Below, piece after piece: positions 7,209 to 42,662 of a DNA stretch of 64,000 bases (position 1 is the stretch's first letter; every line of letters starts with the position of its first letter). The notes beneath the pieces are model-generated. The model did no database searches. It saw only the letters and a list, made by a program, of their open reading frames with translations, and was not told the DNA's origin. Source of the DNA: Candidatus Firestoneibacteriota bacterium (lineage in GTDB: Bacteria; Oederibacteriota; D2-FULL-39-29; JBBTED01); contig JBBTED010000027.1 in the NCBI GenBank assembly GCA_038042445.1, forward strand, positions 37,651 through 101,650, in the 5' to 3' direction. The translations under genes and the position numbers were made by a program.

Positions 7209-7264
7209 GGTAGTCGCAGGCTTTAGCCTGCGGTTCTTTCCGCAAGCTAAAGCTTGCGGCTACC
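7209..7264. repeat. Nested-palindrome repeat family B, copy 1 (ggtagtcgcaggctttagcctgcg ... ccgcaagctaaagcttgcggctacc)
   Basis: Two internally palindromic arms form an outer inverted repeat. Near-identical copies are at 21307-21373 and 33994-34064. Confidence 0.8.
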
Positions 7265-7275
7265 AATTCACCGTC

Positions 7276-7911
7276 CTAAAGTTTACTGTTTTTTAAATAT
7301 ATTTGCTTTGCCTTACTATAATTATCAAGTGTGTTTATATTAAAAAATGAAAGTAATTGTGTGTCAAATTGTTTTATTTCTCTTAAAGATATATTTTTTT
7401 TAATGATTTTAGCAAAAAAATTGGTTATTTTCAAATTAGTTTTCTCTAATTGCTTTTCTATAGGTTTTATGCAATTTTTAGAATAAAATGCAAATAATGG
7501 TTCATATCCTTTTTGAAAAAAAGGAATAATAGCATCATATTTTTTATCTTTTGTAAACTTTTTCATATATTCAAGTAATTGGACATTCAAAAATGGCATA
7601 TCACAAGCAGTAACAAAATTATAAAGTGTCTTTGAATACATTAAACCTGAATAAAGCCCACCAATAGAACCTTTATCTTTGATATAATCACATACAACTT
7701 TTAAATGCAAGTCTTTATTTTTAAAAGAATTAACAATTGGTTCAATTTCTTTTTCGCGCATTTTAGAATTTACAACTACAATAATATTTTTGAAAATTTT
7801 TGCTAGTAGATTTATTCTACGTTCAAGCATTGTTTTATTTGCAAAAGGAAGGAATATTTTGTTTGTATTGATACGCGTGCTTTTTCCACCAGCAAGAATA
7901 ATTGCTGTCAT
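7276..7911 (-). CDS. mobA: Molybdenum cofactor guanylyltransferase / MobA-like NTP transferase
   Basis: MTAIILAGGKSTRI is the N-terminal nucleotide-binding motif of MobA/MocA. It has the right size and sits next to the MOSC protein and the Mo enzyme. Confidence 0.7.
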   Translation of the reverse strand: MTAIILAGGKSTRINTNKIFLPFANKTMLERRINLLAKIFKNIIVVVNSKMREKEIEPIVNSFKNKDLHLKVVCDYIKDKGSIGGLYSGLMYSKTLYNFVTACDMPFLNVQLLEYMKKFTKDKKYDAIIPFFQKGYEPLFAFYSKNCIKPIEKQLEKTNLKITNFFAKIIKKNISLREIKQFDTQLLSFFNINTLDNYSKAKQIYLKNSKL

Positions 7912-8354
7912 AGGACAGATATTTTATCTCCAGTTTTTATTTCGCCGCCTTGCAGTACTTTGGCAAATATACCTTCTTTTGGCATCACACAATCACCAAC
8001 AGCATAATATATAGCGCAGTGAGAATGACAAACCTTTCCAATTTGTGTAACTTCCAATAGAATATTTTCGCCGATTTGTATTTTGGTTCCAATTAAAAGA
8101 TCTTTTAAATTTATCCATTCTGTAGTGATATTTTCTGCAAAATCTCCGGGCTTTACTTGTAAACCCTTCTCAATTATTTTATTTATACTTTCTTGAGCAA
8201 GCAAGCTTATTTGCCTATGCCAATCACCTGAATGTGCATCTCCAACAATTCCAAAGTTTTCTTTAAGACAAGCAAAAGGAATATTTTGTTTTTTTTCGCC
8301 TTTATTTTTACTTATAGATATTGCAATTATACTACCTGTTTGTTCACAATTCAT
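7908..8354 (-). CDS. MOSC domain protein (MoCo sulfurase C-terminal-like)
   Basis: ISISKNKGEKK...GIVGDAHSGDWHRQISLL is a MOSC beta-barrel signature. The stop overlaps the mobA start. Confidence 0.7.
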   Translation of the reverse strand: MNCEQTGSIIAISISKNKGEKKQNIPFACLKENFGIVGDAHSGDWHRQISLLAQESINKIIEKGLQVKPGDFAENITTEWINLKDLLIGTKIQIGENILLEVTQIGKVCHSHCAIYYAVGDCVMPKEGIFAKVLQGGEIKTGDKISVL

Positions 8355-41185: not shown

Positions 41186-41246
41186 GTAGAAGGGGCTTTA
41201 GCCCCGGTATTTTCTTCTTTATACGTTCGCCTAGGCGAACTTCTAC
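41186..41246. repeat. Nested-palindrome repeat family C (gtagaaggggctttagcccc...gttcgcctaggcgaacttctac)
   Basis: The outer gtagaag/cttctac inverted repeat encloses two perfect internal hairpins. It lies in the divergent promoter region between the hgc operon and nifS. Confidence 0.75.
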
Positions 41247-41385
41247 ATAAAAATTTCATTTCCACTTTCTAATTTTATAAAATCCTTTATTCATCTGTGA
41301 TTTCCTCAATTTATAACAAAATTTTGGGGAAATGCCTCTAATTTGCATTGATTTTTTGGATTTTATAATTTATAATCTTGGCTAT

Positions 41386-42612
41386 ATGAAACAAGTATAT
41401 TTAGACAATCATTCTAATACACCAATTGATGAGCGCGTATATAATGAAATGCTGCCGTATTTTTTAGAATTTTATGGTAATGCTCAAAGCATGCATTCTA
41501 TTGGCGCAAAATCTAAAGATGCTATAGAAAATGCACGAACACAAGTTGCAAATCTCATTGGAGCAAAAGCAGATGAGATTTATTTTACATCATGTGCTTC
41601 TGAATCTAATAATCTTGCTATTAAAGGTATTGCCCAAAGCTATAATCAAAAAGGAAAACATATAATTGTCTCAAGTGTAGAACATTTTTCTGTTCTTTAT
41701 TCTGCAAAACGTTTAAGTCAAAATGGATTTGAAGTCACTTATCTTCCTGTTGACAAATATGGGTTAGTTTCACCAGACGATATCCAAAATGCTATAAGAA
41801 ATGATACTATACTTGTTTCTATTCAGCATGCAAATCCAGAAATTGGAACAATACAACCTATATCTGAAATATCAAAGATTGTTCATAAAAAAGGTGTTTT
41901 ATTTCATACAGATGCAGTATGCACAACAGGACATATTCCTGTTAATGTAAATGATTTAGGAGTTGATATGTTGACTATATCTTCTTCTTTGATGTACGGA
42001 CCAAAAGGCACTGCAGCACTTTACATAAAAAAAGGTGTGAAAATAATACCGCAAATTGATGGCGGTATTCAGGAAAACGGTAGACGCGCTGGCACAGAAA
42101 ATGTGCCCTGTATAGTTGGCTTTGGCAAAGCTTGTGAAATTGCGAAAATTGAAATGAGCGAAAATTACAAAAAATTGCTTAATTTACGCAATCGTTTAAT
42201 TGCTGAATTGCCTAAAAAAATAGAGCATTTATATTTGAATGGCCATCCTGAATTAAGACTTCCAAATAATGTAAACTTCTCAGTTGAATTTATTGAAGGC
42301 GAAGGAATGCTTTTGTTTTTAGACCAAAAAAACATTTCCGTTACAAGTGGATCTGCCTGCACTTCAAAATCGCTAAAAATGTCTCATATTTTATCTGCTA
42401 TAAAAACAGATACTGCTATAGCTCAAGGTTCAGTTCTAATGACTCTTTCAAAATATAATGATGATAACGATATAGACTATGTTTTAGCAGAATTTCCGCC
42501 AATTGTCCAAAGACTGCGGGAGTTATCGCCGTTGTATTCTTATTTTATTAAAACAGGCAAACGTCAGATTGCAGGTCCGGGCACTGATTACGAACATACA
42601 TATGAACATTAG
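41386..42612 (+). CDS. nifS: Cysteine desulfurase (NifS/IscS-like class V aminotransferase)
   Basis: MKQVYLDNHSNTPID N-terminus, the PLP-Lys region (SSSLMYGPKG) and the active-site loop SGSACTS. The start is taken at the internal Met (41386). Confidence 0.85.
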   Translation: MKQVYLDNHSNTPIDERVYNEMLPYFLEFYGNAQSMHSIGAKSKDAIENARTQVANLIGAKADEIYFTSCASESNNLAIKGIAQSYNQKGKHIIVSSVEHFSVLYSAKRLSQNGFEVTYLPVDKYGLVSPDDIQNAIRNDTILVSIQHANPEIGTIQPISEISKIVHKKGVLFHTDAVCTTGHIPVNVNDLGVDMLTISSSLMYGPKGTAALYIKKGVKIIPQIDGGIQENGRRAGTENVPCIVGFGKACEIAKIEMSENYKKLLNLRNRLIAELPKKIEHLYLNGHPELRLPNNVNFSVEFIEGEGMLLFLDQKNISVTSGSACTSKSLKMSHILSAIKTDTAIAQGSVLMTLSKYNDDNDIDYVLAEFPPIVQRLRELSPLYSYFIKTGKRQIAGPGTDYEHTYEH

Positions 42613-42662
42613 TAGGGGCGAGTTTACTCGCCCAATAAACGGGCAGGTAAACCTGCCCCTAC
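42613..42662. repeat. Nested-palindrome repeat family D, copy 3 (gtaggggcgagtttactcgcccaataaacgggcaggtaaacctgcccctac)
   Basis: Begins 1 nt after the nifS stop. It has two internal hairpins. Confidence 0.75.

Follow-up and report, generated by a model that had tools for sequence, protein, structure and literature searches.

GTAG-tagged REP doublets, some of them carried by MITEs, between the genes of a Candidatus Firestonebacteria bacterium

Nested palindromes with GTAG and CTAC at their ends recur between the genes of a stretch of DNA from an uncultured groundwater bacterium of the Candidatus Firestonebacteria (31% G+C), and they raise the question of what these elements are and by what routes they could have been dispersed. 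The stretch, hereafter the window, comprises 64,000 nucleotides (GenBank assembly GCA_038042445.1, contig JBBTED010000027.1, positions 37,651 to 101,650); its G+C content is likewise 31%, and nearly all of its genes lie on the − strand. We are confident that the elements are GTAG-tagged repetitive extragenic palindromes (REPs), mostly arranged in doublets resembling REPINs and bacterial interspersed mosaic elements (BIMEs), and that some of them have spread as cargo of miniature inverted-repeat transposable elements (MITEs). An initial annotation, which had recognized a REP/BIME-like system here, is supported in that respect.

Tagged hairpins and their pairing

Both strands of the window were scanned for GTAG followed, after 0-3 nt, by a perfect hairpin of 6-9 bp. 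Such units number 32, compared to a mean of 2.8 (range 0-6) in 30 shuffled sequences built from the window's own dinucleotide transitions. In about 29 of the 32, the stem is G+C-rich, with a length of 6-9 bp, a loop of 2-5 nt and a distance of 0-2 nt from GTAG. By their extragenic site and by the GTAG head next to a short G+C-rich palindrome, these units are GTAG-tagged REPs. They make up 16 loci, namely 13 intact inverted doublets, one interrupted doublet and two singlets. All 16 loci are intergenic, as had been claimed, although intergenic DNA accounts for only 10% of the window (P ~1e-16), and 16 of the 28 intergenic gaps of at least 45 nt carry a REP locus.

Most of the units are paired head-to-head, with GTAG outward, and the halves of a doublet are two REP variants that differ by transitions (CAGAGC/CAAAGC in family A, CAGGC/CAAGC in family B and GCTGAT/GCCGAT in family E). 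The spacers are A/T-rich and 1-25 nt long, and either orientation is present within each family. A single long hairpin, with G-U or A-C positions, is predicted for 11 of the 13 intact doublets; the remaining two, C1 and D2, have more divergent halves and are predicted to form two hairpins closed by GTAG/CTAC. Folding, one of the checks that had been proposed, yields long hairpins with energies of −18 to −40 kcal/mol, compared to −6 to −14 kcal/mol in mononucleotide shuffles. On these predictions, the doublets have the REPIN layout, that is, an inverted REP pair with a short spacer that would be able to form one long hairpin.

Elements of this kind have been described before. The GTAG-tagged REP super-family of Di Nocera, De Gregorio & Rocco (2013, BMC Genomics 14:522; PMC3733652) consists of 24 families, and tagged REPs of both super-families are reported there from >80 species in 8 phyla. 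In the parts of that paper used here, GTAG-tagged REPs have stems of 6-13 bp, loops of 2-4 nt and an unpaired tag, and several families occur per genome; their head-to-head dimers carry GTAG outward and are preferentially heterodimers of two variants. Furthermore, the TAG of the tag serves as a stop codon, intragenic REPs occur, dimers sit inside longer palindromes (e.g. Anabaena GTAG-15), and the units formed by REPs and the REP-associated tyrosine transposase (RAYT) are repeat-specific. Compared with those parts of the paper, the elements of the window and their relatives agree in each respect: tag, stem and short loop; several families and head-to-head heterodimers; sites between unidirectional or convergent open reading frames (ORFs); a GTAG that provides a TAG stop codon; dimers within longer palindromes; intragenic REPs; and repeat-specific REP-RAYT units. 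They differ in the host phylum (Firestonebacteria, with relatives labelled Elusimicrobia and Omnitrophota), which is not named in those parts, in the very low G+C content (31%), in the presence of six families within 64 kb, and in that the longer palindromes around some dimers are MITEs with 8-bp target-site duplications (TSDs).

The name REPIN for the inverted REP doublet comes from Bertels & Rainey (2011, PLoS Genet 7:e1002132; PMC3116915), and Nunvar et al. (2010, BMC Genomics 11:44; PMC2817692) found RAYT genes always bracketed by two inverted, often dimorphic REPs with a GT(A/G)G head. The present system shares with these REPIN-RAYT systems the inverted, dimorphic REP pair whose spacer allows folding as a long hairpin, singlets that resemble doublet remnants, and a Y1/HUH gene bracketed by inverted like REPs; it differs in the very short spacers, in a RAYT that scores below the NCBIfam equivalog cut-off, and in REPs that lie in frame within the gene. 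Similarly, the BIMEs of Escherichia coli, with their Y and Z palindromic units, combine inverted REPs of two alternating types, and rayT is flanked by REPs (PMC2817692), but no sequence similarity to these palindromic units is apparent by eye and no long arrays were seen in the window. Because GTAG-tagged head-to-head dimers, including heterodimers of two variants, have already been published, the 'double-hairpin grammar' that the initial annotation took to be unusual, like the GTAG...CTAC 'superfamily' itself, is the standard REPIN/BIME grammar.

An independent ENA assembly (ERZ1292620), made from Hainich groundwater, contains the same DNA at 99.99% identity, and a Logan contig contains it at 100%, so that the REP elements are not an assembly artefact, an explanation that had been named as potentially fatal to the claim. 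Short-read contigs do end inside the elements. In Hain_H52, contig 1066 ends at about window position 18516 and contig 38 begins at about 18580, within an element, and ends of Logan contigs fall in the B1, E2, A4 and E3 doublets; judged from these positions, such breaks are what would be expected of genome-wide repeats.

By stem sequence, there are at least six families, where at least five had been proposed: A to E and the interrupted one at 14809. Doublets are labelled by family letter and by number in window order (A1 = 11918, D3 = 42612).

Family A: stems GCAGAGC/GCAAAGC
Family B: stems CGCAGGC/CGCAAGC
Family C: hairpins GGGGC / GTTCGCC
Family D: stems GGGGCGAG and relatives
Family E: stems TTGCTGA/TTGCCGA
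Sixth family (14809): stems GGCAAGG/GGCAAAC

The elements are as follows.

2024-2066: family E head-to-head doublet, GTAGTTGCTGAtttaTCAGCA / TTGCCCAtaaaTGGGCAACTAC, 1-nt spacer; predicted fold −18.4 kcal versus −5.8 shuffled; flanked by a + strand gene ending at 1795 and by the stop of the − strand gene 2076-3095
3111-3162: family E doublet (E2), GCTGAT / GCCGAT variants, 15 nt off the start of gene 2076-3095
7210-7263: family B doublet (B1), GTAGTCGCAGGCtttaGCCTGCG ... CGCAAGCtaaaGCTTGCGGCTAC; predicted fold −40.5; the palindrome runs one base further on either side (G...C)
11918-11973: family A doublet (A1), 'naked', without terminal inverted repeats (TIRs) or TSD
14809-14987: sixth-family doublet, GTAGGGCAAGGctttaCCTTGC-gaat-GGCAAACctaaagGTTTGCCCTAC, interrupted by a MITE that splits the loop of the second REP
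14848-14970: palindromic MITE of ~125 nt, 'GTCATCCTGAGG...CGAAGGATCTC' type, inverted ends GAGCCTGTG..CAAAA, duplication of 4-6 bp ((C)TAAA(G)); exact ends uncertain by 1-2 nt
18505-18645, + strand: MITE of 141 nt, 21-nt inverted ends GTAACAGATTAGCCATTCTAA / TTAGAATGGCCAACCTATTAC, 8-bp TSD ctcgtctt, core formed by the A doublet 18543-18598
21308-21372: family B doublet (B2) with a 19-nt A/T-rich spacer
23060-23198, + strand: MITE of 139 nt, TSD catttaaa, core formed by the A doublet 23096-23151; 96% identical to the copy at 18505
30423-30563, − strand (inverted): MITE of 141 nt, TSD gaaaaata, core formed by the A doublet 30470-30525
31966-31991, − strand: single family D REP, GTAGGGGCGAGtttaCTCGCCC, which retains the AATAAT start of the doublet spacer and is probably a half-doublet remnant
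33995-34063: family B doublet (B3), 60 nt past the 3' end of a 6S RNA gene (34124-34302, − strand; Rfam RF00013, 97.7 bits)
37115-37167: family D doublet (D2) of two different REPs, GGGGCGGA / GGGCTGGC, between divergent genes
41186-41246: family C doublet (C1), between divergent genes
42612-42662: family D doublet (D3), whose first G doubles as the final base of the TAG stop in the aminotransferase gene 41332-42612
43751-43774, − strand: single family A REP, GTAGatGCAAAGCataaGCTTTGC
53584-53759, + strand: MITE of 176 nt, ends AAAATAGTTTAGCCGTTGTAA / TTATAACGGCTAAGCTATTAC, TSD aactattt, core formed by the E doublet 53648-53696

The positions that the initial annotation gave for the nested palindromes hold to about 10 nt or better. 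Thirteen of the listed copies are intact doublets (the E copy at 2024 had been placed at 2014), but the one listed at 31964 is the single REP at 31966-31991. The '180-bp relative' at 14810 is the sixth-family doublet split by the MITE of ~125 nt, and the family A singlet at 43751-43774 had been missed.

Doublets carried by MITEs

Three of the four family A doublets (18543, 23096 and 30470) have about 140 nt in common, beyond the 56-nt doublet. This shared unit is bounded by 21-nt inverted repeats, GTAACAGATTAGCCATTCTAA and TTAGAATGGCTAACCTATTAC, and the 176-nt element at 53584, built around a family E doublet, bears related ends. At all four sites (18505, 23060, 30423 and 53584), perfect 8-bp direct repeats, different at each site, stand directly outside the GTAA... 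ends. Judged by these features, the elements of 139-176 nt are classical MITEs, without coding capacity, of a putative staggered-cut transposase. The three A copies and one E copy that they contain are cargo of TIR/TSD MITEs and hence not independent REP insertions; in this respect, the copies listed in the initial annotation are not all alike. The only 'naked' copies of family A are A1 (11918) and the singlet at 43751.

Inverted ends starting with GTAAGCG and 8-bp duplications characterize IS66 elements (PMC11946415). The MITEs resemble this family in their ~21-nt inverted ends that start with GTAA and in their 8-bp TSDs, but they are only 139-176 nt long, encode no transposase and have the end GTAAYAG, not GTAAGCG. 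The ends and the TSD length suggest that the mobilizer was probably a DDE-type transposase of the IS66 family.

Given these findings, one might propose that all the elements are conventional MITEs mobilized by a DDE-type transposase and that their GTAG/CTAC ends are merely short TIRs. Four copies truly lie within MITEs, and each whole doublet is an inverted repeat. The check for TSDs gave a divided answer, however: the four MITEs have perfect ones, whereas the nine naked doublets have no target duplication beside GTAG/CTAC. Even in the four MITEs, the TSD lies outside the GTAA... ends, at 38-64 nt from the doublet. Single REPs exist at 31966 and 43751, and REPs that flank Y1 genes (see below) are the signature of a REP-RAYT system; we consider the extension of the MITE explanation to all the elements very improbable.

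The MITE at 14848 entered a REP doublet. Excision of this insert together with one copy of its duplication restores a perfect 50-nt doublet hairpin. The element at 18505 (MITE_A2), in turn, is inserted at the apex of another hairpin element. A preference for apices is suggested because A and E doublets would have entered MITEs of the same TIR family independently, and both the MITE in the REP loop and MITE_A2 fit it; hairpin apices thus appear, from the arrangement of these insertions, to be favoured landing sites. IS1397/ISKpn1-type elements insert into REP loops, and the mobile element at 14848-14970 may be a comparable case, except that here it is a MITE and not a full insertion sequence (IS). 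A comparison of synteny with another locus (L110) yielded no orthologous empty site. Two solo sequences that resemble MITE ends, at 18432-18452 and 53314-53334 (GTAACAAATTAGCC... and GTAATAGATTAGCT...), have no obvious partner and are probably decayed MITE copies.

Candidate cognate transposases

As the initial annotation had noted, there is no RAYT in the window: none was detected by phmmer with the E. coli RayT and two profiles, and a profile of 27 Y1 transposases found no Y1 transposase in the window at E<=0.01. Nor was a RAYT found in the 10 kb past the right end of the window; on the left side, the one contig recovered begins only ~315 nt ahead of position 1. The recommendation to look for such a gene elsewhere was borne out by a gene on another contig from the same sample, flanked by family A doublets.

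A scan for the family A REP pattern, with one genome per species, returned at least 110 loci. Among the matches listed, the pattern is multi-copy in metagenome-assembled genomes (MAGs) labelled Elusimicrobia (at least 10), Omnitrophota, 'Clostridia' and a few others. Y1 transposase genes are present in 4 of the at least 110 loci, and their best NCBIfam model is REP_Tyr_transpos, with scores under the cut-off. A homologue search from one of these four proteins recovered P0032 (188 aa). This protein matches Pfam Y1_Tnp (PF01797) at 4.6e-11, carries HIH and a NYYEH...YIDNN region (HUH motif and catalytic Tyr), and has weak matches in the PDB to 2f4f and to TnpA-REP, 4er8. REP_Tyr_transpos is its best NCBIfam model as well, IS200 following at 36 bits; we term P0032 RAYT-like because its score is under the equivalog cut-off.

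The P0032 locus (L130/L131) carries family A REPs, with a doublet 33 nt upstream of the start, one REP inside the ORF and a second doublet in the 3' tail. In L131, the doublet directly upstream of the gene matches A1 (11918) at 90% over 62 nt, and this locus and the window have the ~125-nt MITE in common (93% over 68 nt). The gene lies on contig 500 of Hain_H52 in ERZ1292620 (NCBI GCA_964358285.1, CAYHPF010000002.1), which has a coverage of 7; the window contigs of that assembly have a coverage of 8. The RarA protein of the window is identical to MEK6645707.1, and a cluster mate of P0032, the 'transposase' MEK6646242.1, has an accession 535 numbers away; both accessions are named Candidatus Firestonebacteria bacterium. 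From the same sample, the similar coverage, the shared repeats, the same organism name and the nearby accessions, we infer a single genome of origin for the P0032 contig and the window. Tetranucleotide similarity to the window does not discriminate in this matter, being 0.96 both for the RAYT contig and for unrelated low-G+C Elusimicrobia loci.

A JGI metagenome scan for family B returned at least 120 loci. In two of these (L188 and L230), B REPs whose GTAG points outward enclose a RAYT-like gene exactly. Because the proteins linked to family B are only 27-29% identical to P0032, which is linked to family A, the REP-RAYT units look family-specific and, on this comparison, appear to follow the rule published for other phyla.

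In the RAYT clade linked to family A, two A REPs are located in frame within the transposase ORF and flank the HUH motif. The 5' internal REP encodes 'CSCRAKLC' after 'YYFVTIC', and the inverted 3' REP specifies 'AKLPLCRY'. In L100 (891-1334), L040 (7196-7666, − strand), L088 (1073-1336) and L120-L129, the two REPs are perfect DNA hairpins. Only one internal REP, at 6085, is present in L131 (6001-6567), and in P0028 and P0032 the internal REP is in another reading frame. Homologues outside the family A subclade have 'TNYRRPYL' and 'CKLSLGEI' at the sites of the internal REPs. The in-gene REP pair occurs in MAGs with the labels Elusimicrobia and Omnitrophota; the Firestonebacteria MAG has part of it. 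Palindromic elements of Rickettsia occur in genes, and the translation of palindromic repeats in frame in this RAYT clade recalls them.

One member of the RAYT group, P0006, is a single gene in a conserved operon (Bac_transf - RAYT - E1 dehydrogenase) on ten independent groundwater contigs (L120-L129), which come from Rifle-type groundwater and not from Hainich; its start overlaps the stop of the preceding gene. From this context, P0006 looks domesticated rather than mobile. A different RAYT-like ORF, in a MAG labelled Clostridia (L063, 5302-5876), occurs with another GTAG family, GTAGTCGGGCTCgtcccCGAGCCCGA, with one copy just upstream of the ORF and one near its 3' end.

Alternative explanations and implications

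The explanation that we favour involves two routes. REP doublets would be non-autonomous single-strand DNA elements, with the hairpin and GTAG head as recognition features. HUH/Y1 transposases (RAYTs) specific to each family, the genes of which lie elsewhere in the genome, would cut and spread the doublets in trans; by analogy with known REP/RAYT systems, such RAYT-driven mobility is most likely. Through the second route, a DDE-type (probably IS66-family) transposase would spread MITEs with a REP doublet as cargo, and it is this route that the ends and TSDs directly indicate. Host effects, such as 3'-end hairpins and occasional terminators, would be secondary and dependent on context.

Several observations weigh against this explanation. 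The mobility driven by RAYTs is extrapolated from the REP/RAYT analogy, and the assignment of the RAYT contig and the window to one genome is likewise indirect. P0032 scores 68.5 bits against the NCBIfam REP_Tyr_transpos equivalog, the cut-off of which is 80. Linkage to a RAYT was looked for in families A and B and seen in both; C, D, E and the sixth family have no linked RAYT so far. Finally, the parent IS of the MITEs was not found: the JGI metagenome contigs contain no exact match to the end sequences, and the approximate matches in the loci compared are only copies of the same organism's DNA, bar one match with 4 mismatches in L191.

Among the alternatives, the one that survives best holds that the elements are structural or regulatory motifs selected by the host, such as protein-binding sites or stabilizers of mRNA 3' ends, with the transposase domesticated and no longer spreading them. 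The presence of elements in over half of the larger gaps between genes and the closeness of the elements to stop codons are consistent with this possibility, as are the apparently domesticated P0006, a related RAYT, in its conserved operon on ten independent contigs, and the published view, in the portion of the literature used here, that REPIN-RAYT systems are vertically inherited. However, the orientation relative to transcription is mixed, and the positions include promoter-side and divergent ones. We therefore regard this explanation as possible but on balance not probable; it is compatible with, and not opposed to, the mobile REP doublets that we favour. In view of this mixed orientation and of the two doublets between divergent genes, termination or protection of 3' ends is at most a context-dependent by-product.

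A further alternative, in which the elements are rho-independent or bidirectional terminators that are alike only through a shared terminator design, is highly implausible. The G+C-rich stems and the A/T-rich spacer are suggestive of terminators, and in a scan of positions 18000-37999, a REP half followed by a T-run was found on the − strand, in the sense of the local genes, at A2, A3 and B2; the same feature, however, is antisense at A4 and B3, and most other doublets have, by eye, no T-run in the direction of transcription. Moreover, the stems are near-identical within each family, and terminators have no need of an invariant unpaired GTAG head. Either orientation occurs in every family, D2 and C1 lie between divergent genes, the same sequences flank RAYT genes or lie in them, and four copies have transposon-style TSDs. 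A CRISPR or other tandem array is rejected by the dispersal of the copies, and a known RNA family by the Rfam matches in the window, which are limited to the 6S RNA and one tRNA.

Some other repeats of the window stand apart from the REPs. A stretch of 179 nt at 83% identity (repeat D1, 11709/14563), considered as a candidate element, was rejected because it reflects paralogy between two multihaem cytochrome genes; these paralogues are neighbours (10040-11905 and 12015-14759), with the A1 doublet in the gap, and their products fuse multihaem cytochrome c to cytochrome b domains. The window also holds three occurrences of a small palindrome, CCCTATACC...GGTATAGGG (24652-24710, 56634-56692 and 59975-60005): at the 5' end of an S41 peptidase ORF, in frame in the dnaX linker ('SPIPEQSERYS') and at one intergenic site. 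It may represent another family of short palindromic insertions, some copies of which are intragenic. Four direct repeats of ~20 nt (CTTGCTATTTAGGGGTG / TTGCTAATAAGTGGAC / TTGCTATACAGGTGGAC / CTTGCTATTTAG) at 53490-53575 are situated upstream of a large GH42 gene and adjoin a gene whose product combines a solute-binding domain with an AraC-type HTH; from this position, they are possible binding sites of a regulator.

What goes beyond the literature consulted here is confined to the doublets borne by MITEs and the in-gene REPs of the RAYT, and the current understanding of REPs is unchanged. We think it rather unlikely that these two features amount to an entanglement of the REP system with other mobile elements in ways that have not been described before. 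If they did, a cut-and-paste transposase would spread the substrates of RAYTs, and the RAYT could act on its own gene as a substrate or as an autoregulatory target, or the gene could be the evolutionary source of the AGAGC/AAAGC doublet.

Taken together, the results place a REP/RAYT system of published design in Candidatus Firestonebacteria, with the same REP families in MAGs labelled Elusimicrobia and Omnitrophota; our literature search turned up no paper that combines Firestonebacteria, Elusimicrobia or Omnitrophota with REPs or RAYTs. The elements are dense, being present in over half of the sizeable gaps between genes in 64 kb, and this density accounts for the fragmentation of short-read assemblies of these organisms at such sites. 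The MITE-borne doublets and the in-gene REPs offer checkable cases in which a Y1 single-strand system meets a DDE transposon.

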